Notes: a model not told the origin generated them from the letters alone. DNA of 64,000 nt from an uncultured Chlamydiae bacterium (GCA_963754655.1 CAVWGN010000001.1:2432001-2496000); one strand, 5' to 3'; shown: positions 12,690 to 64,000, numbered from the stretch's first letter. Made by a program: numbers and translations.

Positions 12690-12906
12690 TAGACCAAGGC
12701 AACAGCCCATACGCATCAAGCTAAGAATGAGTGCTAGGCTAAGCGACGTCTTCAGTTATTTGGTGTTCTTTTTGAGAAGCAAGATATTTTTTTCTCCTTC
12801 TAGAGCTAATGTAGATAGAAAATCCTCCATTCTCTTGCGAAGCGAAATCACTCCTTTGAGTATGCCGTCCTTTCAGGACTCGATTCTTTTTTATTTTACC
12901 CAGGCC

Positions 12907-14752
12907 TGGGATGAGAAAACGAGGGCTAAAAACCGATTTTTACACAGCTAAAATCGCTAACGGTTCTGGTTCCAATTTATTTGATTTTATAGTAAGTTCA
13001 ATGACATCTGAATTTACTTTGCCCAAACTCAAAACTTCTTTTCGTTTTGCTAAATCCGTTTTGCCAATCCATGTTTCTTCCCATTCCTCCAACATTTCGA
13101 CTGACACCGTTTCTAAAGCCTCTTGTAAGATATCACAATTATTTTCCCCAACCATTCCTGCAAGACTTAGGATACTTTTAGTTATACTAGATGTCGCTTT
13201 GGTTCTCTCTACTATTATTTTCTGTCTTCCTATCAAAGACTCTATTCCTTCGCTGCTTCCCACTAACACCTGTCCCTTGGATAGCACTCTACCTTCCTGT
13301 TTCAAAAAATAAAAAATCTCTTTTGCCAAATGTAGTGCTTCTGGTTTCAAACTTCTAAAGTGAAGTCTTGCTTTAAGAAAAAAAGTCGCATAGCTTCGTC
13401 TATGAAGACCTTCAGTTCTTACTAAATGCCTTGCCAAACGAATGATTTCTATCATCTGAGCATATTTTTCAATGACTTCTTCGAAATCGACTATCCAACC
13501 AGCTTTATCTTTTAATCTATTTATATCTAAATGGGGAATCGTCTCTTGCATTTGAAGAAGGTTTAAAATATCTTGTAGCCAATCAATTAAAATATCAGCA
13601 TTCATGAATCGCGCTTTTTCTCTTTGTTTGGGAGGGCTCAAAAAAGCCTCTGGACTCTGTTTTGTCTTTTGTTTTGTATCTGTAATCAATTGAATTATGT
13701 GTTTCCAAGTATCATCTTTTTCCAGTTCCTTTTTTAATAGAATTGCTAGTTTATGGACCACATCATAGGTGTTTATTGTTTTTTCATGGTTTTGGCAATA
13801 TAGTCTTACACCTTTATTTACATCACTGCCATGATCTGCCACTATCTGCAGAAATGGGCCAATTTTTTCCGATATTTCTTCTAAAACATGCGCAACTTTT
13901 TCACCAGTTGATGAATTCATGGGTTGTAGCGCTAGTGGTTGGAAATCTTCATGATGAATATCAAAGCTGCCCCTTTTTTCAAACTTACTTTGTAATGTAC
14001 TTAATTGAACTCCAAGAACTATTAAGCACTTTTGGTAACCAGCTTGAACTTTAAAATCAACAAGGATAATCCAATCTGAAGCCTTTTCCTTAGCCTTTAT
14101 AAGCTTGTAAAGCCCATATCGTAAAAACCACAATTCGACGCTTTTCCATGAAGGCTGGAAATTGAAATATTTAAATATTGGAATGTTACAACTCTGCATG
14201 GAGATGAAAATTCGCTGAATCGCTCTAAATGCTATTGCAGCTAATGCAAGTGAAATCACAAAAAATATAAATAATATAGGATATTGATGTCGAGCGACCC
14301 TTCGATTGTTGCTAATTTCTTGCTCAATTATTGCACAAGCTTTTTTTTTAATTCATCAATTTGCTTGTCTTTGATTTTACTTTTCTCTTCCACCTCTTCT
14401 AATCTCGACTGAAGGCATTTTATCTGTTTGTTTAATGCCAAGATATTATCTTGTTCCTTTTGTAGCCTTTCTCCTAATCGTTTCTTATCAGTCATTAGAG
14501 CTTGAATCTTAGTTCTTTTTTCTGCGTTTCTTTGCTTCCATTCATCACGACTTTCCTGGTAATGCTTCACTTGTTTACGTATATCTGAAGGACGCTCATG
14601 CTTTTGAGTGCTTTTTGAATCCATTTTATGCCTCATCTAATTTTGAGCAATCAATTATAAAAGCCTCTTTTTAAAAAGCCAAGCGAATTTAAAATAGGAG
14701 GAAAAGCGTTCTAATAATTAGTTGTTAAATATTTTTTTGTTTTCTCATCCCA
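12907..14752 (-). mobile_element. Insertion sequence with an unclassified DDE transposase (Mutator/IS256-superfamily-like), inserted in a REP unit
   Basis: 14-bp TIRs TGGGATGAGAAAAC / GTTTTCTCATCCCA. 9-bp direct repeat ACCCAGGCC at 12898-12906 and 14753-14761. Confidence 0.9.
12940..14636 (-). CDS. Transposase in two overlapping ORFs (OrfA 14328-14636, coiled-coil; OrfB frame open 12940-14352), probably joined by a -1 frameshift
   Basis: Slippery TTA AAA AAA AAG at ~14340-14351. OrfB has LVDFKVQ, IVADHGSD, YDVVH and GSSEGIESLIG motifs. It lies between the TIRs. Confidence 0.75.
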
Positions 14753-14810
14753 ACCCAGGCCTCCGCTTCGCTGCGACCTGGGCTGTAACATGACGGCCCT
14801 TCAGGCCTAA
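14753..14810. repeat. Remainder of the REP-like unit interrupted by the IS (left part at ~12862-12906)
   Basis: acccaggcctccgcttcgctgcgacctgggctgtaacatgacggcccttcaggcct is identical to units in the 11996-12689 element. Confidence 0.9.
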
Positions 14811-14903
14811 CGACAGAGCTCTTATCTAATTCAAAAAACTTATCTTCCTGGTCTAGGAATGTGGGATTTATCTACTCTTCCCTTTCTTTTTTCTTTTGAT
14901 AGA

Positions 14904-14932
14904 TTGACAAATGTTTCGCTTTCGATTAGATA
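14904..14932 (+). promoter_or_regulatory. Putative sigma66 (sigma70-type) promoter
   Basis: TTGACA-N17-TAGATA upstream of the 14970 ORF, which has an AAGGAAG SD. Confidence 0.45.
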
Positions 14933-14969
14933 GGAATAAGATAAGAAATATTCACTAAAAGGAAGCATT

Positions 14970-15236
14970 ATGGATGAAAACATGCCCGGACCAGAAATAG
15001 GGACAACACAATCAGTGATCCTTATGCTTTTAGCTATTTTACTTACGATTATTCCGTTTTGGCGTATTTTTTCAAAAGCGGGTTATTCCGGCTGGTTTAG
15101 CATTTTGATGATTATTCCATTTGTTAATCTCATTGCTTTATATTTCTTGGCATTTGCTAACTGGCCGGTTTTAAGAGCGAAGGAAACTTTGCCAAGTATG
15201 ACAGACTCTAAATTTCCACCTTCTACAATGACATGA
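14970..15236 (+). CDS. Small membrane protein
   Basis: Two hydrophobic segments and an IFSKAGYSGWFSILMIIPFVN..F..WP motif common in small bacterial membrane proteins. SD present. Confidence 0.75.
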   Translation: MDENMPGPEIGTTQSVILMLLAILLTIIPFWRIFSKAGYSGWFSILMIIPFVNLIALYFLAFANWPVLRAKETLPSMTDSKFPPSTMT

Positions 15237-15522
15237 TTACAAGGAAGATTCGTTCTACCCAACATCTTTTTGGCTGTCTCTACCCAATTGTCTCCATGTT
15301 GATTTACAAGTTTTGTCAATTGCTCATCTTCTTCTTCCGTCCATTTTTCATGTTTGATAGCGGGGTTTAAAGTCCCTCTTATAGCGTTGACGACACTCTC
15401 AATGGCACATTTTCAGCATCTGTCCATTTTTTCTTGGACTTTCTCATAGAATGTATTTCCGCACTATGAATAGACGGTACGCTCACTTGTTCAGTATAAG
15501 AATTTGAAATGCCTATATTCAT
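15237..15522 (-). pseudogene. Decayed paralog of the Myb-repeat protein
   Basis: ATG at 15522 gives MNIGISNSYTEQVSVPSIHSAEIHSMRKSKKKWTDAE. Another frame then gives TLNPAIKHEKWTEEEDEQLTKLVNQHGDNWVETAKKMLGRT. Both match the 34266-35666 protein. Confidence 0.8.
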
Positions 15523-15698
15523 GCTACCTCTCTTAAAATTTCATACATGATTTATAAATAAAAATAAATTTCATTATTAATTAAACTCCAATATCAATTA
15601 AAATAAAAATCTTAAGTTTACTTTAATAATAAAATAAGGTATAATTTAGTTGTTTCTAATAATAAAGCTATAAATTAAAAAAAAGGAATAATAAAAAT

Positions 15699-16103
15699 AT
15701 GGAACTTTCTAAATTAGGTAATACTGTTAGTGCATCGATAAGTCTGAGCAATATAGCTATTAAAGCTGGAGTAGGTTATTTATCCGTATTGGCTTTTACA
15801 AATATCAATCCAGTGATTGGTGCTGTTTTTGGAGTCACCTATGGAATCGCAAGTGCTGGATTGGATCCTGTTTTTAATGCTAAACATTCGACTCCTGCAA
15901 GCCAACTTCTGGGGACCGCGCTCAAAATTGCAATTTCAGCCCAAGTGACGATGTTAATTTTAGGAACGACTCTAAGCCTTAAAACAACCTTAGCTGTTAG
16001 CCTCGCAGTTCTAGTGGTAGCTCCTGTAGTTGCAACAGCCCTTCTTGTGTTAGCAAGCGTAGTAGGCTGCGCTGCCGCGATTGCGTTAAGAAACCGTGCT
16101 TAA
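15699..16103 (+). CDS. Hydrophobic hypothetical membrane protein (Inc-like candidate)
   Basis: 134 aa with a long C-terminal hydrophobic stretch, AAGGA SD and an AT-rich upstream region. Confidence 0.7.
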   Translation: MELSKLGNTVSASISLSNIAIKAGVGYLSVLAFTNINPVIGAVFGVTYGIASAGLDPVFNAKHSTPASQLLGTALKIAISAQVTMLILGTTLSLKTTLAVSLAVLVVAPVVATALLVLASVVGCAAAIALRNRA

Positions 16104-16233
16104 TTAATTTCTAAGAGGAGGATTTCTCCTCCTTCTTTTTTTCTATACACTTAAAATAAAATAGGTTTGGCTGTCTTTGTTTTAAAACAAATCTTAATCT
16201 TTCCTCTTCTATAACGACAGAATGGGAAATAGA

Positions 16234-16311
16234 TTAAATATGTTTAGGAGGCCATTCCTGTTCTTTGTCTTGCGGTTTGCCGCACTCAGAGCAAGAATAA
16301 ATGTATTCCAT
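16234..16311 (-). CDS. Possible 25-aa small ORF with CxxC (MEYIYSCSECGKPQDKEQEWPPKHI)
   Basis: Translated by hand. AAGGAATAAC precedes the ATG. Below the ORF-track cutoff. Confidence 0.3.
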   Translation of the reverse strand: MEYIYSCSECGKPQDKEQEWPPKHI

Positions 16312-16322
16312 GTTATTCCTTT

Positions 16323-16359
16323 AAAAAAAAGCGCATAGACTGGTTAAAGATCTATGCGC
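16323..16359 (-). terminator. Intrinsic terminator after rpoC
   Basis: Stem GCGCATAGA/TCTATGCGC followed by a U8 tract on the minus strand. Confidence 0.75.
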
Positions 16360-16370
16360 GAGAAAAGAGT

Positions 16371-20569
<4,199 letters not shown>

Positions 20570-20692
20570 GTATGTCTCCTAAAAAATAAGTTTAAATTAT
20601 TAGACGATGTAATTTTTTCTTTCACAAGTCAGCAAGGAACCAACCTCCATTTGAGGCTGGTCCCTTTGTCGGTCGGCAAATCGTCTTTACTG

Positions 20693-24462
<3,770 letters not shown>

Positions 24463-30277: not shown

Positions 30278-30407
30278 GTTGTTGCTTGTTAAAAACTCGG
30301 TTTTTCAAAGCAAACGCGTAAAGAAATGCGCTTCTTTGAATTAGTGACTAATAAGTTAACATTTTATAGATAAATGTCAAGAGAAAAGTTAGAAGATTGA
30401 AAAATTC

Positions 30408-30727
30408 GGGTGTGATTAAATCTGGGAGTTTATATTTTTTAGCAGATCAATACAAAATGGTAGGGCGGCGGTAGCCGCTTTCAGTGGGAAGCCCCGTATG
30501 AAGCGAGCTTGCGAGCGGAATGCGGGGTGGGCATCAATAAAATATAAACCGCGGAAGCGGTGTGAGTGATCTTACGCTGTTTCCGCAGCTCAATGCTATC
30601 TTGCTACACCCCGCATTCCGCTCGCAAGCTCGCTTCATACGGGCTTCCCACTGAAAGCGGCTACCGCCGCCCTACCATTTCGTATTAATCTGCTAAAAAA
30701 TATAAACTCCCAGATTTAATCACACCC
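30408..30727. mobile_element. 320-bp hairpin MITE/REPIN-like element (second family)
   Basis: ~122-bp inverted arms (GGGTGTGATTAAATCTGGGAG... / ...CTCCCAGATTTAATCACACCC). 9-bp direct repeat GAAAAATTC at 30399-30407 and 30728-30736. Confidence 0.85.
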
Positions 30728-31159
30728 GAAAAATTCTCTTCAATGCTTATTTCAAATCCAATTCTCTATTTAAATGCCATAAACCCAAACTGTTGCACAA
30801 AAAATTCTAGATTTTATAGCACATCTAGAATTTTATAAAAAACATTGATAAGAGCTTGGAAAAGATTAGAATTTTATCTCTTAAATCTTCTCAAGCGTAA
30901 GAGGTTTCTGATTGTGTCTATTGACCAATTTCTTTTTTCTAGGAACTTCCAAATGAAATTCCAATTAGTGAGAATCAAAAACGCTCCTTCTTTCATCAAA
31001 AGCGGCAGCTTTTGCTTTCTTCCTCTTCCTAATAAAGGGGAAATGATGGCTAAAGCCTGCAAAATAAATACAATAGAACGAAAAGCTGATCGAAACATAG
31101 TTTTATCTTTGTTAATACCCTCAATATTAAAAATATCATAAATCATCATTTCTTACTAT

Positions 31160-34265: not shown

Positions 34266-35666
34266 TTACTTAAAGGTTTCTTCTATCCAACAAGGGGAAA
34301 TTTCCTCTAATTGTTCAGGAATCCAATTCTGCTCCATAGGAAATGGATTCTCTTCGGACAAAAAGGATTCAGCAGGCAAAGATTGGTTAAAATCAGAATT
34401 CGAAAAAAGAACAGTTTGAGGTTGCTCCAATTGTGGAGAGATAAGTTCATCTGATGAAGTAGGCTGATGCTGATCTGATTGTGTAGAAGGCCTAGTTAAA
34501 GGAACCTCACTTTCATCAAGATCCCCCTCTTCCTCCACTACTTGAGGAGAATGCGTTTTTTTAATTTTTTTTAAAGGTCTTTCTTCAATAGAAAAATGTG
34601 TTTCGCTTCTCGGTTGTTTCTTATTAGAATGAGATGTTGGATTCAATATTTGCCAACGGCGTGCACATTGAATATTTGTTCTATTAGAGAAATCCTTTGC
34701 AATGAGGTCCCATTGACCTTCTCCGATGCGTTGAACAGTTTCTCTTAATTGATTATCCTCTTCTTCTGACCAAGCGTTTTGTTTGATAACTGAGCTTAAA
34801 GACTTGTTATAGTTATAGTGTTGCCTACACTGCAGATAAGTTCGACCTGGAATGTGTTTGGCTATTTCCGCCCAATTTTCTCCATACTGATCGATAAGAT
34901 CTTCCAATTGATCATTTTCCCGTGTCGTCCATCTTCCTTGTTTGATCGTTGGGTTTAAAGATAATTTATAGCGTTGCCAACAATGGTTATTCGTTCTACC
35001 TGGCATCTCTTTGGCTATTTCTACCCAATTTTCTCCATGCTGGTCGATCAGCTTTTTCAATCGGTCATCTTCTTCTTCTGTCCATTTTTTTCTTTTTGTT
35101 AGATCAGTTGAAAGACCTTTTTTGTTATTGATAGAAAAATTTAAAGATCTTTGATAGTGTGCCATACATTGAAGATCTGTCCTACCTGTAATCTGTTTGG
35201 CTATCTCAACGCATTTTGCTCCCTGCTTATCGACAAGGCCTTGTAATTGCTCCTCTTGTGTCCATTCTTTCTGTTTGATAGTCGGGCTTAAAGCTCGCCT
35301 ATAGTGTTGCCTACACTGTAGAGCAGTTCTACCTGGAATTTCTTGGGCTATTTTCGTCCATTTTTCTCCTTGCTGATCGATCAGTTTTTTCAATTTCTCA
35401 TTTTCCTCTTCCGACCACTTTCCGTGCTTAATCGTAGGATCCAATACACCTGTCCAATGAACCTCGCATTGCCTATGAGTTTTACCAGGCATATTCTCTG
35501 CAATTTTCTTCCAGTTCTCTCCATATTCTTTGATATAACCCTTCAATTGAGCATCTTCATCATCTGTCCATTTTTTCTTAGACTTTTTCATAGAACCTGT
35601 TTCTGCAACATCAATAAAAGGTGCCATGAATTGTTCAGTATAATTATTTGAAAATTCTATATTCAT
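34266..35666 (-). CDS. Eukaryote-like Myb/SANT repeat protein (6 repeats, acidic Pro/Ser/Gln tail)
   Basis: Repeats of W(T/S)xEEDxxL...GxxWxxIAxxxPGRTxxQC. Start set at ATG 35666 by homology with the 15522 paralog. Confidence 0.9.
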   Translation of the reverse strand: MNIEFSNNYTEQFMAPFIDVAETGSMKKSKKKWTDDEDAQLKGYIKEYGENWKKIAENMPGKTHRQCEVHWTGVLDPTIKHGKWSEEENEKLKKLIDQQGEKWTKIAQEIPGRTALQCRQHYRRALSPTIKQKEWTQEEQLQGLVDKQGAKCVEIAKQITGRTDLQCMAHYQRSLNFSINNKKGLSTDLTKRKKWTEEEDDRLKKLIDQHGENWVEIAKEMPGRTNNHCWQRYKLSLNPTIKQGRWTTRENDQLEDLIDQYGENWAEIAKHIPGRTYLQCRQHYNYNKSLSSVIKQNAWSEEEDNQLRETVQRIGEGQWDLIAKDFSNRTNIQCARRWQILNPTSHSNKKQPRSETHFSIEERPLKKIKKTHSPQVVEEEGDLDESEVPLTRPSTQSDQHQPTSSDELISPQLEQPQTVLFSNSDFNQSLPAESFLSEENPFPMEQNWIPEQLEEISPCWIEETFK

Positions 35667-35773
35667 AAAAAAAATCCATTTAAAATTTAATAAGTAATTT
35701 ATAAAACAAATAAAATAAACCATAATTAGTTTTAATACCACTAAAAAATTATATTAGCAATTAATTATTTTTT

Positions 35774-37457: not shown

Positions 37458-39299
37458 TTAAGAAGCAACCGGGAGCGTTTTATCTTGCCGAATATCAAAT
37501 TCCAGCTTCCACTTACGTCCATCGGAAGCCACGCACCACAGTTCTAATACTCCCAATTCGGTTACCTTAGACTTCAATTTGACCCGCACGGTTTTGCCAT
37601 CGCCGTCGCCTTTATCTAAAAGCGTCTCGATGGGATGCAGCTCGGTGAGCTCTTGTTTCCAATTGCGGACCATCGCCCCTACACTTGGCTCCTGGCCATT
37701 TGATAATTTTGGCGTGGCATGACTGAAAAATCGGAAAGTGGATTGCTCGCCCAAGACAAGGGCAAACTCTTGATTGTCCAATTCGCGCTCTTCCCCTTCT
37801 TCTAATCCAAAGGGAACAATGCAAACAGCTCGTAAAGGAGGGCTGATTCCAGGCACTGCAGGAGCCGCTTCTTCAACGCCGACAAAATAGCTGCGGCTTG
37901 TTCCGCTGCGAATACGCACAGCATGTCCTTGACGAGCTAAACCATAATAAGCGGCTCCCCGGCTGACCGCATAGTCGTAATCAGCACCCGCTAATTCTTT
38001 CACAACCGGCTTTTTAAGCTTTTTGGCCCAGCCATTGAGAAGCGTCATCAGTTGTTTACGAATGGCGGCAGCTTTGAGGGTGCCTCCATTGAACAACACA
38101 GCGGTAGGCAACACAAATTGATCCATTCGGCCGTCATCTGACTCTCCTGTCATAGACAAGAATTTTGCCAATTGGCAAGAAATGCGCGCATCTTGGACAT
38201 AAGGTAAACCAATTTGTTGAATCCCCACACGCCGCTCTGTTGGTGAGCGCTCGTCAGGAGCCACCAGTGGAATGAAGCCATCGATGACAAAACGTCGTAC
38301 TTCTTCTTGTGTCAACTCTGCCTTAAGAGTATTGCCAATCAGACGACTTCCACGGCCCAATACAGTCACATCGACGCTTTTAGGAGACTCTTCTCCCATC
38401 AATTTCTCCTTCGCTTGCCGACATTGATGCACAAGCACTTGGAGCTGCCAATGATCTAAATTGTGTCCTTGATCTTCAAGCTTTTGTTTAACTAGGTAAG
38501 CAAGCCCTAAATCAATATTATCTCCTCCTAAAAGCAAATGGGCGCCTACTGCTTGACGCTTGAGTTGCAAATTCCCCTCTTCTTCTTCCACAGCAATCAG
38601 ACTAAAGTCGGTTGTTCCTCCCCCAATATCGATGACCAAAATGGAGTCGCCCACTTTCAACTGCTCGCGCCATTCATCGGCATGCGCATGTAACCAAGCA
38701 TAAAAGGCTGCTTGGGGCTCTTCTAAGAGCACGACTTCGGGATAGCCTGCTTGTTCTGCCGCTTCTTGTACGAGCTGCCGAGCGCTGGGATCGAAAGAGG
38801 CTGGCACAGTCACTAGCACCTTTTGACTTCCAAAAGGCGCATCGGGCATGGCGGCATCCCAAGCTTCGCGCAAATGACGCAAAATTTCGGCGCAAGCCTC
38901 CAAAGGACTCATTCGATTACCCCCTTCGTCGGTCTCTAAAGGTAAAAGTTTTTCGCGTCGATTAATTCCTGGATGACAAAGCCAAGACTTCGTAGAAGCG
39001 ATGAGATGAGTGGGAAGCTCAGCGCCACGATCTCTTGCATAGGTTCCAATGGCAAATGGGCGCTCTTGATTCCAGGGAAGCTCCGCAACTTTATTTTTAA
39101 GTTCTTCAGGCAAAGGATAATAGATAAAAGATGGCAATGAAAAAGAAGTCCCTAACATTTGCGCAGCCATAGTTTGAGCAATGGCAACTTGCTCCAAAGA
39201 AGGGCGTTGCTTATCTTCTACTTGCATGGGCGTATAAGCCATCGTGCAATTGGTGGTTCCCAAATCGATGCCTATAATATAAGAAGCGCTACTCATCAT
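37458..39299 (-). CDS. Non-canonical Hsp70 family protein
   Basis: IGIDLGTTN, TVPASF, LEEPQAA and DIGGGTTD. The C-terminus is unlike DnaK. Confidence 0.9.
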   Translation of the reverse strand: MMSSASYIIGIDLGTTNCTMAYTPMQVEDKQRPSLEQVAIAQTMAAQMLGTSFSLPSFIYYPLPEELKNKVAELPWNQERPFAIGTYARDRGAELPTHLIASTKSWLCHPGINRREKLLPLETDEGGNRMSPLEACAEILRHLREAWDAAMPDAPFGSQKVLVTVPASFDPSARQLVQEAAEQAGYPEVVLLEEPQAAFYAWLHAHADEWREQLKVGDSILVIDIGGGTTDFSLIAVEEEEGNLQLKRQAVGAHLLLGGDNIDLGLAYLVKQKLEDQGHNLDHWQLQVLVHQCRQAKEKLMGEESPKSVDVTVLGRGSRLIGNTLKAELTQEEVRRFVIDGFIPLVAPDERSPTERRVGIQQIGLPYVQDARISCQLAKFLSMTGESDDGRMDQFVLPTAVLFNGGTLKAAAIRKQLMTLLNGWAKKLKKPVVKELAGADYDYAVSRGAAYYGLARQGHAVRIRSGTSRSYFVGVEEAAPAVPGISPPLRAVCIVPFGLEEGEERELDNQEFALVLGEQSTFRFFSHATPKLSNGQEPSVGAMVRNWKQELTELHPIETLLDKGDGDGKTVRVKLKSKVTELGVLELWCVASDGRKWKLEFDIRQDKTLPVAS

Positions 39300-43663: not shown

Positions 43664-45397
43664 TTAATGGTTCAAACATTGAATAAGCGCCATAGCTGCA
43701 ATAAGGCGCAACGTTTGAGAATGTTCTTTAAATACTTTGAGCAGAAAGGGAATCGAGCGAATAGATCCAATTCTCCCGATTCCCTCTAGAATACGCGCTT
43801 TTTGTTCCCATTCACTATTAGGATATCCCTCTTCCAATGTTTGAATGGCACTTTCTTCCCGACTCCAGAGAGAAAGAATCAACGCCGCTTGCAACCGAAC
43901 ACGCGGTTGAGTATCCTGTAAAAGCTGCTGAACTATTTCAATAGCAGATTCATCCCCTTCCGTCAAAAGCAAAATTGCAGCAGTCGCTGAAATTTCCCAC
44001 GATCGTTCGCTCAAGTATTGACGAATGGCATGCTGAATATCCGGAGCTTTAAGGATAGCCAATAAATTTAACAATTCGAGACGAATGAGTTGATTTTCCA
44101 TTTCAGGTGTTGTCAACAGGTCATCTTCTTTCTTGGGAGATTGACTCATAATCGCACGGAAAAGGCCGACTTCCCATGTACTCCAGTTAGCTTTTTCGGT
44201 CATAAGGATTTGTCTGGTATAAGTGGCCGCTTCTTGGACTGCTTGGCGCTGTCCTAATAATGCAAGAGCCAAGTTCAAACGTACGTAGGGATCAGAATGA
44301 AGGCGAAATTGATCAAGTGTTAAAGTCATGCCATAACGCCCCGTTGCCCCTAGAGCTGCTGCTGCAAGAGCCCGCACCTCACGACGTCTATTATGAAGAA
44401 AACGTTCTAAAACTCGTTGCCCCTCCTCTGGGATGTAAAGAGTCAAGAGCCAAGCAGCGGATAAAGCCACTTTGTAATTGAGATCTTGAGAACTTTGACG
44501 AATAAGGGCTAAAATCTTTTCCAGTTTTCCATTTGGCCGCAACTGACCAATGGCTTGAAAAGCCTCTAGGCGCACATCGGGATGAGGATCTTCTGCCAAG
44601 GACAATAATTGATCCAGGTCTCGCAGTGATTGAAAATAAGCAATTGCCTTGCAAGCAAGCTGACGCAATCCCGCTCGATTGCTAGAAGCTAGCCGCTCGA
44701 TTTCTGTGCGATTAATGGTATCAAGCAACTCTAACAAAGCAGCAATAGCCAAAGCTTTTTCAGCGGCAAGACTTTCATTAGAAGCAATGACAGTCTCTAG
44801 CTCGACTCGCAAGTTGATAATCTCCATCTTACCTATGGCTTTCAACACTTGCTGCCGCACAGCCCAAACTTTTTCTTCCCTAAATAAGCGTTTAACCCCC
44901 TCAACTAATTGGTGATCACGAAAATGGCTAGCGAGCTTGACAGCAACAGTACGGACGGCATAATTAGAATCGCGCATGCCTTGATTTAAAATCGCAACGC
45001 CTTTAGCATCTTGACTGAAAAATGCTGCTAAAAGAGCCATCTCCCGCATAATAATAGAAGAAGAATGAGAAGCCTTCTGAAGAACACCCCAAGCCATCTC
45101 TTCGATTAGCTCACGATTCATTGCTTTATCGGGAAAACGTTGCACATAATTTTCCCAAGCTTGCACAAGCTTTTTCTCATTTCCCCCTTTCGCCAAAGCC
45201 CGAATATAACCCTCATAAAGAGAAACACACTGAGGATAATGAGTAATCGCTTGTTGCGCCTCTTCAATGGCAACTGAATAATCACGTACAGTCAAATGCG
45301 CTTGAATGCGTCTCGCCACACGCTCCTCATCAGAAGCAGCCTGTAACCTTCCTACTCCCAAAACAATAAAAGTTAAAAAAAGAAATCGGACCCTCAT
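43664..45397 (-). CDS. HEAT-repeat protein
   Basis: Repeated D...VR..A motifs. Start is likely MRVRFL at 45397. Confidence 0.85.
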   Translation of the reverse strand: MRVRFLFLTFIVLGVGRLQAASDEERVARRIQAHLTVRDYSVAIEEAQQAITHYPQCVSLYEGYIRALAKGGNEKKLVQAWENYVQRFPDKAMNRELIEEMAWGVLQKASHSSSIIMREMALLAAFFSQDAKGVAILNQGMRDSNYAVRTVAVKLASHFRDHQLVEGVKRLFREEKVWAVRQQVLKAIGKMEIINLRVELETVIASNESLAAEKALAIAALLELLDTINRTEIERLASSNRAGLRQLACKAIAYFQSLRDLDQLLSLAEDPHPDVRLEAFQAIGQLRPNGKLEKILALIRQSSQDLNYKVALSAAWLLTLYIPEEGQRVLERFLHNRRREVRALAAAALGATGRYGMTLTLDQFRLHSDPYVRLNLALALLGQRQAVQEAATYTRQILMTEKANWSTWEVGLFRAIMSQSPKKEDDLLTTPEMENQLIRLELLNLLAILKAPDIQHAIRQYLSERSWEISATAAILLLTEGDESAIEIVQQLLQDTQPRVRLQAALILSLWSREESAIQTLEEGYPNSEWEQKARILEGIGRIGSIRSIPFLLKVFKEHSQTLRLIAAMALIQCLNH

Positions 45398-45401
45398 GGA
45401 T

Positions 45402-45986
45402 TCATATGCCGCAACGTGTTTTAATAAGATCGCTAATAAGTTTAAATTGCGCATGTTTAGAATCTTTGAGTAATTCAAATAAGATTGTTTCAACACAACT
45501 CACCCGTGCTCCAGCATCTCGCATTTCCGCAACAGCTGTTGAGAAATCTTCAACGGAGCGAGAAGTCATTGCATCGTTGAGAACAGCAACTTGTTTGCCT
45601 GCTTTTAACAATCCCTTTACAGTTTGCAGAACACAAATATGTGCTTCAATGCCCACAATGACCCATTGCTGATAGGGAAGAGAAATCGCACAATTAAAAA
45701 AAGCTGGATCATCTAAGCAAGAAAAACTCGATTTAATCCAGGGCTGATAAGCTTGTCCGAGTAAAGCCTGTAAAGGAGCAACTGTTTGTCCTAAACCTTG
45801 TGGATATTGTTCCGATTGAAGGATAGGCAAATTGAGAATTTGAAAACCTTTGATGAGCTTGCACAAGGTATGCAAGACGTCGGGACCTCGATTCATTGAC
45901 GGAAAAAGCTTATCTTGCATATCGACAATGAGTAAAACAGTTTGGAGAGGCTGCAAAGTAAATGAAGGCATGCAAATTTTATCCAA
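45402..45986 (-). CDS. Isochorismatase family hydrolase
   Basis: LLIVDMQ, SEQYPQGLG and GIEAHICVLQT. Confidence 0.9.
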   Translation of the reverse strand: MDKICMPSFTLQPLQTVLLIVDMQDKLFPSMNRGPDVLHTLCKLIKGFQILNLPILQSEQYPQGLGQTVAPLQALLGQAYQPWIKSSFSCLDDPAFFNCAISLPYQQWVIVGIEAHICVLQTVKGLLKAGKQVAVLNDAMTSRSVEDFSTAVAEMRDAGARVSCVETILFELLKDSKHAQFKLISDLIKTRCGI

Positions 45987-49973: not shown

Positions 49974-50459
49974 ATCAACCCAATCTTTCTGGGAAGAGCC
50001 ACCGTGAACTGCATCTAGTACTCAACCACACTAGTTTTGTGTATTTAGACTGCTTCAAAGCCCCAGGGTAGGGTGTTCATTTTGTGCAAAAAATGAGCTT
50101 TATTTTTCACAATAATTGGCATAGTTAAATTGAAGGTCGCATGTTTATGCCGTCCTTTCAGGACTCGATGTCTTGTTGATAGAACCCAGGCCTCCGCTTC
50201 GCTGCGACCTGGGCTGTAACATGACGGCCCTTCAGGCCTTAACAAAAAGACGATTTCGGGGCTATAAAAGAGGGACTTAAACATCTCTTGTTAAGGCCTG
50301 AAGGGCCGTCATGATAGAACCCAGGCCTCCGCTTCGCTGCGACCTGGGCTGTAACATGACGGCCCTTCAGGCCTTAACAAAAAGATGATTTAAGGGCTAT
50401 AAAAGAGGGACTTAAACATCTCTTGTTAAGGCCTGAAGGGCCGTCATGTTACAGCCCAG

Positions 50460-51299
50460 GGCGTGTTTGAAAAACATTACCAATGTGTGATATAAATTAT
50501 AATAAACGCAATTATAACCACTCCTCTAAATATTTTTCCTAACTTATCGTAACGAGTAGCAATTCGTCTAAAAGTTTTTAGTTTTTGGAAAAAATTCTCC
50601 ACAACCTTTCTTTTTTTATACAAACGCTTGCTATAGGGAATTTCATCAGTTCTCTTTGGGTGACTTGGAATGACAGCTCGTTCCTTTCTTTTCATTAAAT
50701 AGTATCTAATTTCATCTGTATCATAAGCTAGATCTGCTATAACATTTTTTGCTCGTTTCCCATTTAATAGAGATTTAGCAAATAAATTATCATTTCTATT
50801 TCCAGGAGCAATTTTTACTTTTAATGGTTGCCCTTCAGCATTAACTACAACATGAATTCTTGTTGACCAACCACCTTGTGTCTTTCCAATTCCATTAAAT
50901 GTTTTTCCTCCAAAACCTCCCATTGCATTTTGATGTACTTTAACACTTGTAGAATCAATAATATGTGATTCGTGGGATGCATTTTTTTTTCAAAACACTC
51001 CAAATTTTTGACCAAGTTCCATTTAAGGTCCAGTTATGCATTCTTGAATAGATCGTTTGCCAGTGGCCAAATTCAGGGGGCATATCTCTCCAAGGAGCTC
51101 CCGTTCTTATAGACCATAAAATCCCTTCTATTACCAACCGATCATTTTTTCTAGGTCTTCCCTGTTTACCTGTTTGCGAAGGTAATAATGGACTTAGCTT
51201 CTCCCAGTCCTTATCTTTTAAAAACATTCTAGTCATAAACACCTCCTATGGGTCCCTACAACTATTATTATATCATAAATAATCTTTTTAAAACACGCC
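50460..51299 (-). mobile_element. IS5-family (IS427-like) insertion sequence, ~840 bp
   Basis: TIRs GGCGTGTTTGAAAAA / TTTTTAAAACACGCC. CCAG is duplicated (or CA, if the TIR is taken 1 nt longer). Two ORFs. Confidence 0.9.
50477..51242 (-). CDS. IS5-family transposase split into two frames at an A9 run
   Basis: OrfA has GRPRKNDR...TGAPWRDMP. The OrfB frame has IIDSTSVKVHQ, IADLAYD and VENFFQKLKTFRRIATRYDK. Confidence 0.88.
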
Positions 51300-51748
51300 C
51301 CAGGTCGCAGCGAAGCGGAGGCCTGGGTTCTATCATGACGGCCCTTCAGGCCTTAACAAGAGATGTTTAAGTCCCTCTTTTATAGCCCCGAAATCGTCTT
51401 TTTGTTAAGGCCTGAAGGGCCGTCATGTTACAGCCCAGGTCGCAGCGAAGCGGAGGCCTGGGTTCTATCAAAAAGACATCGAGTCCTGAAAGGACGGCAT
51501 AAACATGCGACCTTCAATTCAACTATGCCAATTATTGTGAAAAATAAAGCTCATTTTTTGCACAAAATGAACACCCTAACCCAGACGATGCCCTGGGTTA
51601 GATTAGCCCTCATCATGTAGTCTGAAGGACTACATGAGAATCATCTCACCCCAACTCGGGCTTTGAAGCAGTCCAAATAAGCAAAATTAATGTGGTTGAG
51701 TAATAGATACGTTAAGCTAAGAGAGGTTCCCCGGAGGGAGGACCTCTC

Positions 51749-53689: not shown

Positions 53690-53690
53690 T

Positions 53691-54641: not shown

Positions 54642-54664
54642 TCCTCAACTCCTTTCTTATATTT

Positions 54665-55657: not shown

Positions 55658-55945
55658 AGCCTAAGTCCTTTATTCATTAAAATTAAAGAATGTAACAGAA
55701 ATTTGCTGAAGGTCGGCTATTATGATAAAAGGTTGTGGTGTTTTTGCCAAGTTACAAAGCAAGAAAGAAGAGATAGGATAAAAAATAATTTAAGGAGTCT
55801 CTTCTAAAGTACGTTGTACTTCAATAAGAGCATCGCACATTTGTTCTGATAACAAATTCTCACCTCCCTCCATCTCATTTAATCATTAGACCTGATTGAT
55901 TTAAAATAGTCTCTAGAAAAATTTTAACTATAAAAAAGGTTTAAT

Positions 55946-57481: not shown

Positions 57482-57591
57482 CCGCAGATAGTATTGAATA
57501 AAAGAATTAAACTTAAAAGAGCTGCTTCAAGCCTAAACGCTTGTCCCACTCTTTTAAGCGAATTCTTATTGAGTTGACTTTGGAGCAGGCT

Positions 57592-57939
57592 TTAAACGCC
57601 TACTTCTACGCCATTATGAGAATATTCGGGTTGTTCTGTCTCTACCACTTGCCGCATTTTTTTTCCAGGTGTAAACTTAACAGCAAGACGGGCAGGAATC
57701 ACAATAGGCACTGCTGCATTCTTGGGATTTCTCCCAATTTTTTGCTTTCTCTCGACAACCTCAAAAACACCGAATTCACGAAATTCCAATCTCTCTCCTT
57801 GCGATAAGCAATCTGTGATTTTATCCAAAAAAGCCTGTATCACATGACGGACATCATTTGGATGAATCCCCTTATCTTGTGAAATGGAATTAATGAGTTT
57901 TTTCTTTGTCATGGTGTTTTTCTTTGTACTGGTTGCCAT
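57592..57939 (-). CDS. HU/IHF family DNA-binding protein
   Basis: FREFGVF and GRNPK...IPAR..VKFTPGK. Start is likely MATSTKK at 57939. Confidence 0.93.
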   Translation of the reverse strand: MATSTKKNTMTKKKLINSISQDKGIHPNDVRHVIQAFLDKITDCLSQGERLEFREFGVFEVVERKQKIGRNPKNAAVPIVIPARLAVKFTPGKKMRQVVETEQPEYSHNGVEVGV

Positions 57940-58177
57940 AGGCTCTGCTCCTTCATTTTGCACTTTTTTCGTTAGATTTCTGAATTTCCGACATTGTCAT
58001 ATCCTTTTGATTTTCAAGCAAGTTCTTTTTAGTTCTTTTTGTTTTTTTCAAAACTATTGAACTCCTCCAAAACCAATTTTCTGCCAAAAACCCCTCTTTT
58101 TTCTAACACTTGGTAAATAAAGATTTTAGTGAATATTTCCTATAATAAGAAATACTGTTTTGAATTCAAGATTAATT

Positions 58178-59464: not shown

Positions 59465-59496
59465 CCGGTTAAGAATTAGGCAGATTTGGTCTGAAC

Positions 59497-59525
59497 ATTG
59501 TCTAAATGTCTTGATTTTCTGTCAA
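59497..59525 (-). promoter_or_regulatory. Putative sigma66 promoter of tyrS
   Basis: TTGACA-N17-GACAAT on the minus strand, ~33 nt upstream of the start. Confidence 0.5.
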
Positions 59526-59945
59526 TGTCGATAATTGTTTTTCTCAAGGGGAAATTGCAGGATAAAAATGATTTTAAGCTAGCACTCCATTCGTATTAAT
59601 TTCACTTTAAGATAAGCAGGTGATTGAATGTTATCCCTTAAATAGAAAACAAGTAAAAAATCAAGCTATAAAAATATTATTTTATTTGTTATGATAAAAA
59701 TAAAGATTTATTTGCTCTTCAACTTTGAAAAGGTGTTTAAATTAAACCTAATATTTGCATAAAAGCGCAATGCAAAAGGCCCTAAACTTTTTGTTCACTT
59801 ATCATTTAGCTTATTGCATTAAAGGAACCGAAGATAGCGAAAAAAAATAAATAGCTTGATTTTTTTGCTATTTTTCTTATTCTCCAGATTGAAACAGGCA
59901 ACAACTTTAAGGGAACTCTATAAAACCTATGAGGAGAATTTAATC

Positions 59946-60317
59946 ATGAAAAAGCAACTTTTTCTTTTGTCTTCGCTATGTTTAGTGTTAAGTGCATGTG
60001 AAAATCAATCAAATCCCCCCAATGCAGATAACACGGGACGCAATGTTCGTGATCGTGGACCAACGATAACTCCTGGAGAACAGGGTGAAAGTGAAGCAGA
60101 TCGTACCATTACACAGAAAATTCGCCAATCTTTAATGAATGACGATTCTTTATCAACAAATGGAAAAAACGTTAAAATTATGACAAAGAATGGCACGGTG
60201 GTTTTGCGCGGTGCTGTGAATAGCGATAAAGAAAAGAATGACATTGGCCAAAAAGCACAATCTATTTCTGGTGTCAGTAATGTAGATAATCAATTGGAAA
60301 TTATTCGTAGCGAATAA
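59946..60317 (+). CDS. BON-domain lipoprotein (OsmY-like)
   Basis: GAGGAG SD, lipobox LSAC, and NGTVVLRG...GVSNVDNQL. Confidence 0.9.
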   Translation: MKKQLFLLSSLCLVLSACENQSNPPNADNTGRNVRDRGPTITPGEQGESEADRTITQKIRQSLMNDDSLSTNGKNVKIMTKNGTVVLRGAVNSDKEKNDIGQKAQSISGVSNVDNQLEIIRSE

Positions 60318-60385
60318 TGCGAGTGGTCGCTAGCGGTAATGCGATTCACTTGTGCATAGAGAGTCTTAAAATAAAGGAGATTTTT

Positions 60386-61066
60386 ATGGCTTTTCAAGCA
60401 ATTTATGGTATTGTTAGCAGTAGAGCTAACGCTGAGACAATCATTCAAGCTTTAGTAGATGCAGGTGTTAAACCCCAAGACATTTCTTTTCTCAGTTCGC
60501 AAGGAAAAGAATTTCATGAGCTTAGTCAAGAGGCTCTCCCCTCCAATCGCAATTGGAGAACAGAAGAGCGCGTCACAGATTTTCCTAATGGAAAACAAAT
60601 GCCAGAGCATGTAAGCGATACCACTCAAGCCTCTCGAGGAACTAGTTCGGGACACCAAGGTGGCTTAGGAACTGAAAAACACACTAAAGCTCCAGAAGGA
60701 GCAACAACTGGCGGTGTAACAGGAGGCATTATTGGGGGAACTCTTGGGCTACTGGCTGGAATTGGAGCACTTGCCATTCCAGGATTAGGACCCTTTGTTG
60801 CTGCAGGTCCTCTGATGGCAACATTAGCTGGACTTGGCGCTGGCGGTACAGTAGGAGGAATTGTGGGTAGTCTGGTTGGCGCAGGTATTCCAGAATACGA
60901 AGCGAAGCGATACGAAAATCGCTTGCAACAAGGAGGCATTCTTCTTTCTATTCGTGCCAATAGCGATAGCCTAGCGAAACGCGTCAAAGATATCATGCAA
61001 CAAAATGGCGCTGAAGATGTTTCTATTTCTTCTGAAGCTACAACTTCTAAGAACTATAATAAATAA
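60386..61066 (+). CDS. General-stress-type membrane protein with a Gly-rich hairpin
   Basis: AAGGAG SD and GLLAGIGALAIPGLGPFVAAGP...GIPEYEAKRYE. Confidence 0.85.
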   Translation: MAFQAIYGIVSSRANAETIIQALVDAGVKPQDISFLSSQGKEFHELSQEALPSNRNWRTEERVTDFPNGKQMPEHVSDTTQASRGTSSGHQGGLGTEKHTKAPEGATTGGVTGGIIGGTLGLLAGIGALAIPGLGPFVAAGPLMATLAGLGAGGTVGGIVGSLVGAGIPEYEAKRYENRLQQGGILLSIRANSDSLAKRVKDIMQQNGAEDVSISSEATTSKNYNK

Positions 61067-61087
61067 GTCATTCTTATTTTATTCTTA

Positions 61088-61118
61088 AAAATGGCTATGC
61101 TTTAAGCATAGCCATTTT
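61088..61118. terminator. Bidirectional terminator between convergent genes
   Basis: AAAATGGCTATGCT / AGCATAGCCATTTT. Confidence 0.75.
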
Positions 61119-61875
61119 AAAAGGGATTCACCAAATCTAAGAAATGACAGGGAAGACTTAATGCTTGCTCTAAATGGCTAGCCAACGCTATAGGGCCCAC
61201 TCTTTCAGTAGCAGAATGTCCCAAAGCATAGAAATTAATTTTCTCTTCCAGGGCTTGATGCCAAGTAGGCTCATCAAAACTCCCTGTAATATAAGCATCT
61301 ATTCCTTCTTTAGCTGCATCTAAAATTGTTTTATGAGCTCCTCCAGAAACAAGAGCGACAGTCTGAATAACTGGAGAACCACCCCAAGCACAGGTTGCTG
61401 GATGCTGATAATAAGTCTCTAATCGATTCTTAAATTCTTCTCTCGAACAGGGAGCAATTCTTCCCTTGACACCTACGGGGATTCGTTCCAAATAACCAAA
61501 AGGTTGTAAGTCAGACCATTCTAAATCTTTAGCCGCTTTCCAATTATTGCCAATCAGCGGATGCATATCCAAGGGTAGATGATAGGCAAATAATGAAATC
61601 CCATGTTCAAGCAGCAATTGAAGCTTTTTACGTTTAACGCCTTGAATGATATAGCTATCACGCTGCCAAAAAATTCCATGATGAACAATTAAGGCATCGA
61701 CCCCTTGTTTGACCGCTGCTTCAATAGTTGCTAAACTCGCTGAAACAGCTGTTGCCAACTTTACAATACGTGCTTTGCCTTCTACTTGCAATCCATTAGG
61801 AGCATAATCATTGACCCCTTGACTAGAAAGCAACTGATTTAAATAAATGCATAATTCTTCTAATGTCAACATCAT
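61117..61875 (-). CDS. Nif3-like dinuclear metal center protein
   Basis: DYAPNGLQVEG, IVHHG, YHLPLD and GHSATE. Start is near 61875. Confidence 0.93.
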   Translation of the reverse strand: MMLTLEELCIYLNQLLSSQGVNDYAPNGLQVEGKARIVKLATAVSASLATIEAAVKQGVDALIVHHGIFWQRDSYIIQGVKRKKLQLLLEHGISLFAYHLPLDMHPLIGNNWKAAKDLEWSDLQPFGYLERIPVGVKGRIAPCSREEFKNRLETYYQHPATCAWGGSPVIQTVALVSGGAHKTILDAAKEGIDAYITGSFDEPTWHQALEEKINFYALGHSATERVGPIALASHLEQALSLPCHFLDLVNPF

Positions 61876-61956
61876 TTCCTTAAAAAGTTTGAATTGATTT
61901 GTATGGGGATAATCACATTTACTCAGAGTGTTTTTACTAAAAATATTTGACACTGG

Positions 61957-62234
61957 CAGCCTTTCGAGGCTGACAGGAAATTGATAATTTCAGGCCTTAA
62001 ATAATTTTTGAAACCACCCACAATATACTCAAGACCAGTTAAAAATAAATTATATAAGTCCGAAATATCAATTTCCTGTCAGCCTCTTCAGGCTGATGCG
62101 CTGACTCTCAGATTTTACTTTAGACCCGCAGTCTAATATGGCAAGCTAAAATTCAGCGTATCAGCCTGAAGGGCTGTAAGGCATGGTACAAAAAGAGTAG
62201 ATTTTGGGTAACATGTTTATGCCGTCCTTTCAGG
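61957..62234. repeat. Nested inverted repeats and REP-like units upstream of nif3
   Basis: 21-bp IR at 61966-61986/62066-62086, IR at 62086-62104/62153-62171, and GCCTGAAGGGC motifs. Confidence 0.75.
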
Positions 62235-63692
62235 GACAATTGCAGAATAAACAATAAATTATTTTAATTTACCACTTTCAAAAAAAGGCTCCTTAATATA
62301 GTCTAGATGTAGAAAAACCGTCTTAAACTATACAAGGAACCGAAAAATGTTCAGAGAAAAATTATCGCAAATGTGGAATAACGTACAGTCTACTCTTTTT
62401 CCTGATTTAATCAAACGAACTCATGAACTCTGCCCTGAGTATAAAAAATTAGTATCAATTCTGGAACTTGTTCGTATTGAAAGTCATATTCCGCGATCCT
62501 TCAAATTAGGAAGGCCACCAAAAGATCGCATCGCAATGGCTAGAAGTTTTATCGCAAAAGTAGTCCTAAAACAACCTTACACTAAACAAATTATTCGCCT
62601 GCTAAACCAGGATGAACAATTGAGGATTATTTGTGGTTGGGAGGCAAATCATAAAATTCCTTCTGAATCTAAATTTTCTAGAGCTTTCAAAGAATTTAGC
62701 CAAATAACCCTTCCGGATAGGGTTCACCAAGCATTGGTTAAAGAATTTTACAAGGGAGAGATCATAGGACATGTGATAACAGATTCTACACCCTTAGAAG
62801 CACGTGAAAAATCATTAAAAAAACCATGTGCAAAAACACGTCGAAAAGAAAAAGACAAAGAAAGAAGAAGAATGAAAAGTGCTGGAGAACCAAATCTACG
62901 TCAACAGCAGTTGAATGAACCAGATCTTCGAAAAATGGTAGAACATCTTCCTATAGCATGTGACAAAGGCATGAAAAGAAATCCTCAGGGATTTCACATT
63001 TTTTGGAAAGGCTATAAGTTGCATACTAATGTTGATGATAATGGAGTCCCTTTGGCTGCAATTGTCACATCTGCATCGTGTAATGACTGTGAAGTTGCAA
63101 TTCCTTTATCTCTAAAAACAAGCAAGGTAGTAACTAATTTGTACGATTTAATGGATGCAGCTTACGATTATCCAGAAATCAAGGAATTTAGCCGATCCCT
63201 TAATCATATACCAATTATCGATCAGTGTTCGCGAAGTGCAGCTCAAAAAAAGGCAAAAATGGAAGAGAAAAAAAGAAAAACTCTTTTAAATTTTAAAACA
63301 GCTGAAGAAAAGAGGTACGCAGAGCGATTTCCCAAAGAATCCTTTAATGCATTCTTTAAGGACTATTGTGGAGGACATAGGATATATTACAGAGGATATC
63401 AGAAAGTCTCTTGCCATGCATTATTTGGAGTATTAACAGCGGCCGCTATGATGTTATTGAAATTCACTTCCTAAAGATCGATTAAATTTCAAAGATTGAC
63501 AGTATCTTCTTACGTTACCCCCTGCCAAAATTAGATCAATTTTTAAAAAAATTCAAAAAATTCGAATGTTTTGCATAAAAGTGTTTTTTTTTCATTAAAA
63601 CTTAGTCGTCTAGAATCGATTCTTTTCGATCTCAGGTACAATTGACAGAAAAAAAATCGCAGTATAACACGCTAAATAATTCTGCAATTGTC
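62235..63692 (+). mobile_element. Insertion sequence with a single DDE transposase (IS4/IS5-clan-like), inserted in a REP module
   Basis: TIRs GACAATTGCAGAAT / ATTCTGCAATTGTC. CCTTTCAGG is duplicated at 62226-62234 and 63693-63701. The boundary is ambiguous by 2 nt because the target is quasi-palindromic. Confidence 0.9.
62347..63474 (+). CDS. DDE transposase
   Basis: GRPP, PSESKFSR, TDSTPL, GYKLH and LMDAAYD motifs. Confidence 0.9.
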   Translation: MFREKLSQMWNNVQSTLFPDLIKRTHELCPEYKKLVSILELVRIESHIPRSFKLGRPPKDRIAMARSFIAKVVLKQPYTKQIIRLLNQDEQLRIICGWEANHKIPSESKFSRAFKEFSQITLPDRVHQALVKEFYKGEIIGHVITDSTPLEAREKSLKKPCAKTRRKEKDKERRRMKSAGEPNLRQQQLNEPDLRKMVEHLPIACDKGMKRNPQGFHIFWKGYKLHTNVDDNGVPLAAIVTSASCNDCEVAIPLSLKTSKVVTNLYDLMDAAYDYPEIKEFSRSLNHIPIIDQCSRSAAQKKAKMEEKKRKTLLNFKTAEEKRYAERFPKESFNAFFKDYCGGHRIYYRGYQKVSCHALFGVLTAAAMMLLKFTS

Positions 63693-64000
63693 CCTTTCAG
63701 GACTCGTTGTCTTTTTGATAGAACCCAGGCCTCCGCTTCGCTGCGACCTGGGCTGTAACATGACGACCCTTCAGGCCTTCAGGACTTAACAAGAGAGGTT
63801 TAAGCCCCTCTTCTATAGTCCCTAAATCATCTTTTTGTTAAGGCCTGAGGGGCGGCCCTTCGAGGCTGACAACCCCTCTTCTATAAGTCCCTAAATCATC
63901 TTTTTTTTAAGGCCTGAAGGGCCGTCATGTTACAGCCCAGGTCGCAGCGAAGCGGAGGCCTGGGTTCTATCAAAAAGACATCGAGTCCTGAAAGGACGGC
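63693..64000. repeat. REP-mosaic cluster (third locus), running off the window end
   Basis: Same REP and linker modules as 11996-12689, in both orientations. Confidence 0.9.

Follow-up and report, generated by a model that had tools for sequence, protein, structure and literature searches.

Fixed insertion addresses within a palindromic Y1-transposase gene end of an uncultured Chlamydiae bacterium

Fixed-site targeting of repetitive extragenic palindromic (REP) sequences has been described across five insertion sequence (IS) families (Tobes and Pareja 2006, PMC1525189), with ISPsy8, ISPa11, ISPpu9/10, ISRm22 and ISRm19 as type 1 and ISRm5, ISPsy7 and ISNm1106 as type 2 elements; in S. meliloti three unrelated families (IS4, IS110, IS256) are tied to REPs in one genome. 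An IS481 element of Pseudomonas fluorescens SBW25 occupies one REP position (Ngan et al. 2024, PMC11708052), and for IS1397, ISKpn1 and IS621 the targeting of palindromic units has been ascribed to the transposase itself (summarised in PMC1525189 and PMC3184786). Cleavage by REP-associated tyrosine transposases (RAYT) provides further background (Ton-Hoang 2012, PMC3333891). Comparisons with the literature, here and below, refer to the accessible portions of these and the other cited papers. The subject of the present analysis is a stretch of 64,000 nt from an uncultured Chlamydiae bacterium (the window, with coordinates counted from its first letter), in which three IS, termed ISA, ISB (an IS5 element) and ISC, are lodged in one palindromic repeat family, termed R1. 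The genome (G000) comprises 3.16 Mb in 2 contigs, of which contig C1 was used for IS counts, and two IS481-like elements elsewhere in it are termed G and I.

Several IS families targeting REPs in one genome (PMC1525189) and an IS481 element at a REP (PMC11708052) are known already; new relative to these are the class of target, the phylum of the host, how many elements share one unit, and two IS clades that lack family models. Like the type 1 elements, ISC, G and I all lie at one nucleotide of an extragenic palindrome, and like type 2 elements (compare ISRm5, 5/7) an IS256 element of this genome lies in or beside repeats without a fixed position (PMC1525189). Unlike the IS in the accessible text of that study, the elements described here belong to a chlamydial host and have as their target the end of an IS200-like Y1 gene without GTAG, three addresses in 100 bp serve four IS types, and neither ISC nor ISA reaches the cut-off of a family model. 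The SBW25 case involves another repeat class (PMC11708052), whereas here two IS481-like elements with 34% identity share one site and their relatives occur in unrelated repeats at variable offsets. IS1397, ISKpn1 and IS621 also differ from the R1 system, as they belong to the IS3 and IS110 families and use enterobacterial REPs. A search that reached only a minority of subscription papers found no literature on IS targeting palindromic repeats in chlamydiae.

The R1 repeat and its occupants in the window

The R1 unit of about 100 bp contains three hairpins, namely a GTCC/GGAC mini-hairpin, a CCCAGG...CCTGGG stem and a GGCC/GGCC hairpin, and occurs as head-to-head doublets. About 280 copies are present (286 stems, 14 of them within the mask of open reading frames (ORFs)), forming 139 clusters and 39.6 kb. 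The unit folds moderately better than shuffled sequences (z -1.6 to -2.4), and Rfam holds no family matching it. [quoted passage not shown]

11994..12691, no strand: empty R1 array of mini-hairpin, stem and GGCC hairpin units, head to head, in a MITE-like shell
12757..12906, no strand: gene-side portion of a Y1-transposase unit with an internal deletion, matching the 3' part of the L004 Y1 gene at 79%
12898..12906, plus strand: left copy of the 9-bp ISA duplication, ACCCAGGCC (right copy 14753-14761)
12907..14752, minus strand: ISA, unclassified IS of 1846 bp with 14-bp TIRs, 10 full copies
12940..14259, minus strand: ISA catalytic ORF P0001, 439 aa, invariant D68, D142, D166/H169 and E340
14328..14636, minus strand: ISA upstream ORF, 102 aa, with an A9 run where the ORFs overlap
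14753..14868, no strand: what remains of the deleted Y1 unit's R1 end, namely stem and GGCC hairpin
50069..51578, no strand: shell-wrapped R1 array split by ISB
50460..51299, minus strand: ISB, two-ORF IS5-family element of 840 bp (ORFs 51242-50955 and 50923-50477)
62209..62234, no strand: left half of the R1 mini-hairpin split by ISC, without a shell end here
62233..63694, plus strand: ISC, single-ORF DDE_Tnp_1 + DUF772 element (ORF 62347-63474, P0002), its likely ends set by those of relatives
63693..64000, no strand: remainder of the R1 doublet past ISC

Excision of each IS together with one target copy rebuilds an R1 unit in all three cases, as had been proposed. The central 30-mer of the empty site has 5 exact copies in C1 for ISA and 203 for ISB, and none for ISC because that R1 copy has a substitution. 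ISA and ISB occupy opposite arms of the R1 stem, the latter in the GCCCAGG arm with CCAG at 50456-50459 and 51300-51303. The deleted Y1 unit at 12757..12906 terminates with the mini-hairpin and the R1 stem's first arm; this carrier of the window's ISA has 8 copies genome-wide and is unlike the shells. The ends of the shell around the array at 11994..12691 begin TAGGGTGTTC, and the shell itself lies within a second Y1-end repeat, R2. Two further statements of the initial annotation hold: no other IS was found in the window among the 11 multi-copy families catalogued, and R1 covers a few percent (2.3%) of the IS-free window. As R1 makes up 10.9% of the window's non-coding DNA and 6.2-6.4% of that genome-wide, simple arithmetic puts the chance of finding 3/3 IS in R1 at between about 1e-3 (window share) and 2e-4 (genome share).

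R1 forms the inverted ends of a Y1 transposase gene that is IS200-like. Among 9 Y1_Tnp matches in the genome, the gene L004 (C1:395753-396241) is bordered by R1, complete downstream and degenerate upstream. Inverted R1-like units with co-varying hairpins lie at both ends of Y1 genes (65-86% protein identity) in 5 other genomes; of the other Y1 relatives listed (13 loci in total), two have the downstream end only and one is cut off, and relatives at 45-49% identity have other repeats or none. The L004-type gene is single in the genome, its paralogues being at most 49% identical. Its protein passes the IS200/IS605 model (64.4 bits, cut-off 55), fails the RAYT model (22.6, cut-off 80) and carries the motifs DHIH (HuH) and YLSSQKEHH (Y---Q--HH). 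The R1 unit has no GTAG or GTGG on either strand, and its CGTC overlaps the feet of two small hairpins, not the foot of the main stem. The initial designation of the repeat as a REP was thus not upheld, since R1 is not a canonical (GTAG) REP, no guide is present and the Y1 protein fails the RAYT model.

The description of TIRtrons fits R1 better than that of a classical REP. As in TIRtrons/TIRYT (Di Nocera et al. 2013, PMC3733652), a Y1 gene lies between long inverted repeats and the ends are dispersed as singles, dimers and clusters, and as in TnpA-Y1 subclass 1.2 (Quentin et al. 2018, PMC6006769) the HuH and Y---Q--HH motifs are combined with a low gene copy number. That subclass is found mostly in Cyanobacteria/Bacteroidetes and generally lacks terminal hairpins, which are tendencies and not strict rules, while the R1 ends have three hairpins each, occur in about 280 copies, mostly in a MITE-like shell, and belong to a chlamydial host. 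The accessible text on TIRtrons and on this subclass makes no mention of IS inserted in TIRs. CGTC-tagged REPs differ in being, as far as their published description is accessible, a family without a cognate transposase, whereas R1 has its cognate Y1 gene. The R1 stem pattern was found in 14/72 other genomes of the family and in 0/3 of the genus. Five further IS200-like Y1 genes in C1 (L002, L003, L005, L006 and L007) have hairpin-rich ends of their own, and with the four repeat families (R2-R5) derived from these, Y1-end repeats amount to 13% of non-coding DNA. The genome looks chlamydial, as had been assumed, because the nearest NusG cluster is mostly Chlamydiota; the chlamydial OmcB profile matched nowhere and is therefore uninformative.

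Several observations bear on the MITE-like shells. The 77 paired shells (median 396 bp) all hold R1, and shells contain 59% of R1 bases. Their flanks lie within 2 mismatches of the ISA 9-mer in 134/179 cases, against 0.45% at random. Relatives of ISA in other genomes have ends TAGGGTGTT or TGGGGTGT with 9-bp duplications, and the shell ends match theirs. Because the flanks resemble the ISA target and the ends match those of ISA relatives, the shells are likely MITEs, i.e. non-autonomous elements, of ISA's family. Two points weigh against this assignment: duplications, although they appear only in the 9-bp register, are rarely exact (4/77, and 17 with at most 1 mismatch), and no coding element carrying shell ends turned up. 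The shell ends had also been considered as an IS5-type MITE with a CTAG duplication, which was dropped as duplications appear in the 9-bp register alone and the end sequence recurs in ISA relatives.

Genome-wide insertion sites

The census of C1 comprised 83 full copies from 11 types of multi-copy IS. Remnants of IS110, IS630 and DDE_Tnp_1 type that occur once were noticed and left out of the counts, and three copies of IS type D nested in other IS were kept. Enrichment was measured against random non-coding positions, 6.4% of which are in R1, and p-values treat copies as independent. Since assembly indel errors inflate non-coding DNA, the true R1 share of it is somewhat above 6%; fixed-site results are unaffected. 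Such uncorrected errors are indicated by rpoB and rpoC (window 16371-24462), which are single-copy and yet lie in 5 and 4 frameshifted pieces. Repeat seeds R2b, R2c and R4b had been cut from IS flanks and are circular for types B, H and F, so that a seed-free test was added; an earlier version with exact 16-mers gave weaker evidence (F 4/8, p 0.05). A Fisher comparison of targeting with non-targeting IS was left unused, as the result itself had defined the groups.

Four IS types are concentrated in R1. ISC lies there in 10/10 full copies (p 1e-12) and in 2/2 partial ones, ISB in 5/6 (p 6e-6) with its sixth copy in the like arm of R2, and the IS481-like elements G and I in 5/5 (p 1e-6) and 3/3 (p 3e-4), respectively. 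Each of these has a fixed address within the unit: ISC the loop of the GTCC/GGAC mini-hairpin, ISB the GCCCAGG stem arm, and both G and I, with 34% identity between them, the CATGT linker that separates two hairpins. All copies share one R1 position in the case of ISC (12/12), G (5/5) and I (3/3), which is not so for ISB (5/6) and ISA (1/10). Mapping of the window's three IS through the genome, as the initial annotation had suggested, therefore identifies R1 as a strong insertion hot spot, and a distribution in proportion to intergenic DNA was not seen. The suggested comparison of positions within the hairpin gave a divided answer, ISC and ISB each having a fixed and different position while ISA is mostly elsewhere.

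Other IS types behave differently. ISA lies in R1 in only 1/10 copies (p=0.48), with one more having R1 on one side only, and IS256 in 2/8. A second IS5 element (0/23), IS4 (0/2), IS630 (0/2) and two IS607 types (0/11 and 0/3) were never found in R1, and neither copy of IS type H was in R1. Other repeats are used instead by some of them, with IS4 in the loop of R2 (2/2), IS256 in three Y1-end families (7/8) and the second IS5 adjoining another multi-copy repeat in 16/23 copies. Nearly every DDE element here favours some repeat, and not the same one. The notion of R1 as a landing pad for diverse elements is therefore supported by four IS types at fixed sites and weakened by ISA, which is not an R1 user; as a pad for all DDE elements it fails with the 23-copy IS5 that is never in R1. 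The IS607 elements were in Y1-end repeats in 0/14 cases and beside any multi-copy repeat in 2/14. Only 4/83 full IS copies in C1 interrupt a restored ORF of at least 120 aa, and selection against gene disruption therefore matters and is strong.

The copies represent separate insertions, as flank identity between any two of them stops within 174 bp and array layouts differ. ISC is inserted in both orientations, 7 one way and 5 the other.

Sequence, shape and survival in target choice

A structure-directed choice common to the three IS of the window, as first proposed, is not what was found, since each follows one sequence address and skips equally common hairpins or arms. ISC was in none of 311 sites in the sister R1 hairpin (CCCTTCAGG), compared with 261 mini-hairpins (p 8e-5), and in none of 84 R2 hairpins having its 9-mer. 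None of 7 ISB copies, one of them partial, was in the opposite arm of the R1 stem (276 sites; p 0.02), and the 5:1 ratio of ISB in R1 to ISB in R2 tracks the GCCCAGG supply of 288:90. Among clean ISA duplications, 8/9 differ from RCCCWGGGY by at most 1 mismatch, compared with 0.18% of non-coding 9-mers drawn at random; ISA follows a 9-bp palindrome of this kind that is found in several repeats, and met R1 once. For the window's three elements, sequence reading is favoured over shape.

Based on these patterns, we consider it fairly probable that each transposase independently reads its own short palindromic sequence in R1, which offers about 280 gene-free, harmless copies, and that the fixed and different sites result from this. 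A DDE enzyme of ISA's family would have helped to multiply the R1 targets by way of non-autonomous shells, and to pick the site the transposases would read about 9-13 bp of duplex sequence. Over time, such preferences would have gained from selection for harmless sites, and in IS256 and the IS481-like clade hairpin shape or bendability may play an additional part. The safe harbour proposed initially would find its place here: few IS lie in ORFs, and a harmless site is a likely reason why such preferences evolved. It is not the immediate cause of the pattern, because selection cannot single out one nucleotide and unique DNA also retains IS607 copies.

A number of observations count against so simple a reading of short sequences. 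The ISC 9-mer CCTTTCAGG has 108 sites outside R1 and yet ISC is in R1 in 12/12 cases (p 0.017), and TCATGT has 377 non-coding sites outside R1 while G and I together are in R1 in 8/8 (p 8e-4). A short motif could thus be insufficient for ISC and the IS481-like pair, for which a longer sequence or a fold would fit equally. IS256 has 8 unrelated duplications and is nevertheless beside multi-copy repeats in 8/8 (p 8e-5, seed-free test), and IS481-like relatives lie at variable offsets from unrelated hairpins. In addition, target preferences are deduced from insertions that survived in the sequence and not from measured transposition.

Such observations lead to an alternative in which R1 and the other Y1-end repeats serve as general landing pads, attracting diverse DDE transposases through extruded hairpins, cruciforms, single-stranded DNA or a bound protein (e.g. 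the Y1 transposase), with the cut site being secondary. This appears possible but on balance doubtful. It would account for IS256, which enters three Y1-end repeat families (7/8) without a common target sequence, and for IS481-like relatives (44-50% identity) at GTAG REPs in genomes G118 (313 pattern matches) and G302 (55), as well as at an unrelated hairpin repeat in genome G460, again at variable offsets. A stem-loop requirement has also been reported for ISPpu10 (10.64898/2026.03.19.712850, accessible portion), and ISC relatives at 55-61% identity lie at or near the axes of GC palindromes. From 27 loci with IS481-like relatives, 18 could be scored for a hairpin of -6 kcal/mol or better within 40 nt, an ad hoc cut-off, and 9/18 had one compared with 18% of 405 control positions. 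The other 9/18 sites lacked a strong hairpin, the positive ones come from 6/13 genomes, and ISC's own hairpin falls short of the same cut-off (0/10). General pads also agree poorly with the window's three IS, which skip equivalent hairpins and arms, and with the 23-copy IS5 and both copies of type H outside R1. The sites of distant ISC relatives vary, and in the printed flanks of IS256 relatives at 63-67% no repeat was apparent by eye; no IS256 relative at E 1e-100 was found in 72 family genomes. For IS256 and the IS481-like clade, both absent from the window, choice directed by hairpin shape or by a protein is plausible. Somewhat more doubtful still is a self-reinforcing system, in which an unclassified Mutator/hAT-like family multiplies R1 doublets in shells as a dock with several addresses, at least IS256 and IS481-like elements find the dock by shape or bound protein and not by sequence, and the IS481-like clade follows this rule at unrelated repeat families across Chlamydiota.

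In comparison, it is very unlikely that targeting is absent and that randomly inserted copies survived only in dispensable repeats. The strong selection implied by 4/83 copies in a restored ORF is what such a process would need, and the IS256 pattern fits survival in repeats. Survival cannot, however, yield one nucleotide in 12/12, 5/5 and 3/3 cases, which refutes this explanation for ISC, ISB, G and I, and the IS607 copies show that unique non-coding DNA tolerates insertion, although as controls they represent a serine recombinase and not a DDE enzyme. The least credible of the explanations considered is that one junction of IS and repeat was spread by shell copying or gene conversion, or is an artefact of assembly. 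R1 arrays are near-identical and likely mobile, ISC has 2 distinct sequences in 10 copies, and the assembly contains indel errors; local gene conversion is possible for single pairs, such as two G copies with a common rare R1 variant. Against spreading stand the two orientations, the differing layouts and outer flanks, and the end of flank identity within 174 bp. Against an artefact, public run X1 contains ISC (0 differences), its junction with the mini-hairpin in both orientations, and a join between ISB and the R1 stem; as this run may come from the source sample or from a closely related strain, it documents the junctions in reads without counting as independent support. Run X2 contains short common pieces only.

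With four targeting elements, three addresses and built-in negative controls in 100 bp, the question of sequence versus shape becomes directly testable. The IS481-like element of G460 (L320, L322, L324 and L325) is the cleanest case of shape-directed targeting met: 4/4 copies flank one hairpin repeat (149 matches) at different offsets, with duplications AGAC, GATT and CTTC on either side of the hairpin. In five relatives rich in R1, a search for DDE and rve transposases gave 19 loci, in fragmented assemblies.

Transposases of the window and neighbouring features

The three transposases had been described as unrelated types, which does not apply to ISB and ISC: both match DDE_Tnp_1 and are distant relatives with 29% identity over 110 aa (E 8e-5). 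ISB falls within the IS5 family, with 129.6 bits to NF033580 (cut-off 110) for the second ORF and 103.6 for the first, a short TIR and a 2-4 bp duplication. ISC stays below the family cut-offs, with 73.8 bits for IS1182 (cut-off 270) and at most 45.8 for IS5 models. Its relatives, which a contig search by P0002 alone did not find and an alignment-based search did, comprise 160 loci, 84 of them with both ends; they start with GAG, 6 nt before an NTTGC core. The 84 have duplications of 4 bp (39), 5 bp (4), 2 bp (6) or none (35), and the closest relative having both ends (L126, 61%) begins GAGACAATTGCA.

Target duplications were present on both sides of each window IS as first described, i.e. ACCCAGGCC, CCAG and CCTTTCAGG. 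For ISC, 3, 5, 7 or 9 bp are all compatible, since the target is a palindrome, and 9 bp is therefore a maximum; if all 9 bp count as target, ISC spans 62235-63692 (1458 bp). The end register of L126 and the other relatives points to a likely duplication of 5 bp (TTTCA), not 9, with the element at 62233-63694. By analogy with a sister IS5 that duplicates TA inside CTAG, the ISB duplication could be 2 bp (CA) instead of CCAG.

Distant relatives of ISC insert at varied sites (G077, six copies listed), with a stem of at least 4 bp beside only 2/43 duplications, and the three relatives at 55-61% identity near palindrome axes have both ends visible. In this small sample, the palindrome preference likely arose in the ISC sub-clade. 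With 12/12 copies at one nucleotide and distant relatives at varied sites, ISC represents a compact single-protein model for the gain of site specificity by a DDE enzyme.

ISA matched nothing in Pfam at E 0.001, no NCBIfam transposase at E 0.1 and none of the IS256, ISKra4, ISH6 or ISLre2 sequence models, and those of its 45 homologs that are named are hypothetical proteins. Its predicted structure (pLDDT 88.7, pTM 0.84) has an RNase H-like DDE core with a helical insertion and matches Hermes (Z 15.3, root-mean-square deviation 4.9, 319 aligned), ISCth4 (11.3) and the P element (11.2). ISA is alike Hermes (hAT), ISCth4 (IS256/Mutator-like) and the P element in predicted fold, DxxH motif and 9-bp duplication, with only about 11-15% identity. 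The DDE core with helical insertion, the C/DxxH motif and the 9-bp duplications fit the IS256/Mutator-like superfamily, and the model would suggest a Mutator/hAT-type DDE transposase in mode of action, with no named family assigned. The A9 run suggests that the two ORFs are fused via a -1 frameshift; longer fused homologs exist, e.g. P0008 with 570 aa. A second, diverged member of the ISA family (about 28% identity) at C1:427095-428436 of G000 also has a two-ORF layout and lacks clear ends.

Other repeats of the window include a palindrome at 30405-30730 with 90-bp arms of another multi-copy repeat (up to 61 copies), which is free of IS, and a short multi-copy MITE-like remnant at 61929-62086, which overlaps the start region of a DUF34/NIF3 gene just upstream of the ISC array. 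Among the genes, 34266-35741 (minus strand) encodes a 491-aa protein with at least 5 Myb-like DNA-binding repeats (PF00249, E 3e-74), unusual in a bacterium, and related repeat DNA, lacking a long ORF, lies at 15186-15522. An ORF of 3057 aa at 2736-11909 (plus strand) contains internal repeats and matches DUF3638 once (residues 1989-2194). The minus strand at 37458-39299 and 43664-45496 encodes a divergent Hsp70-like protein and a HEAT-repeat protein, respectively.

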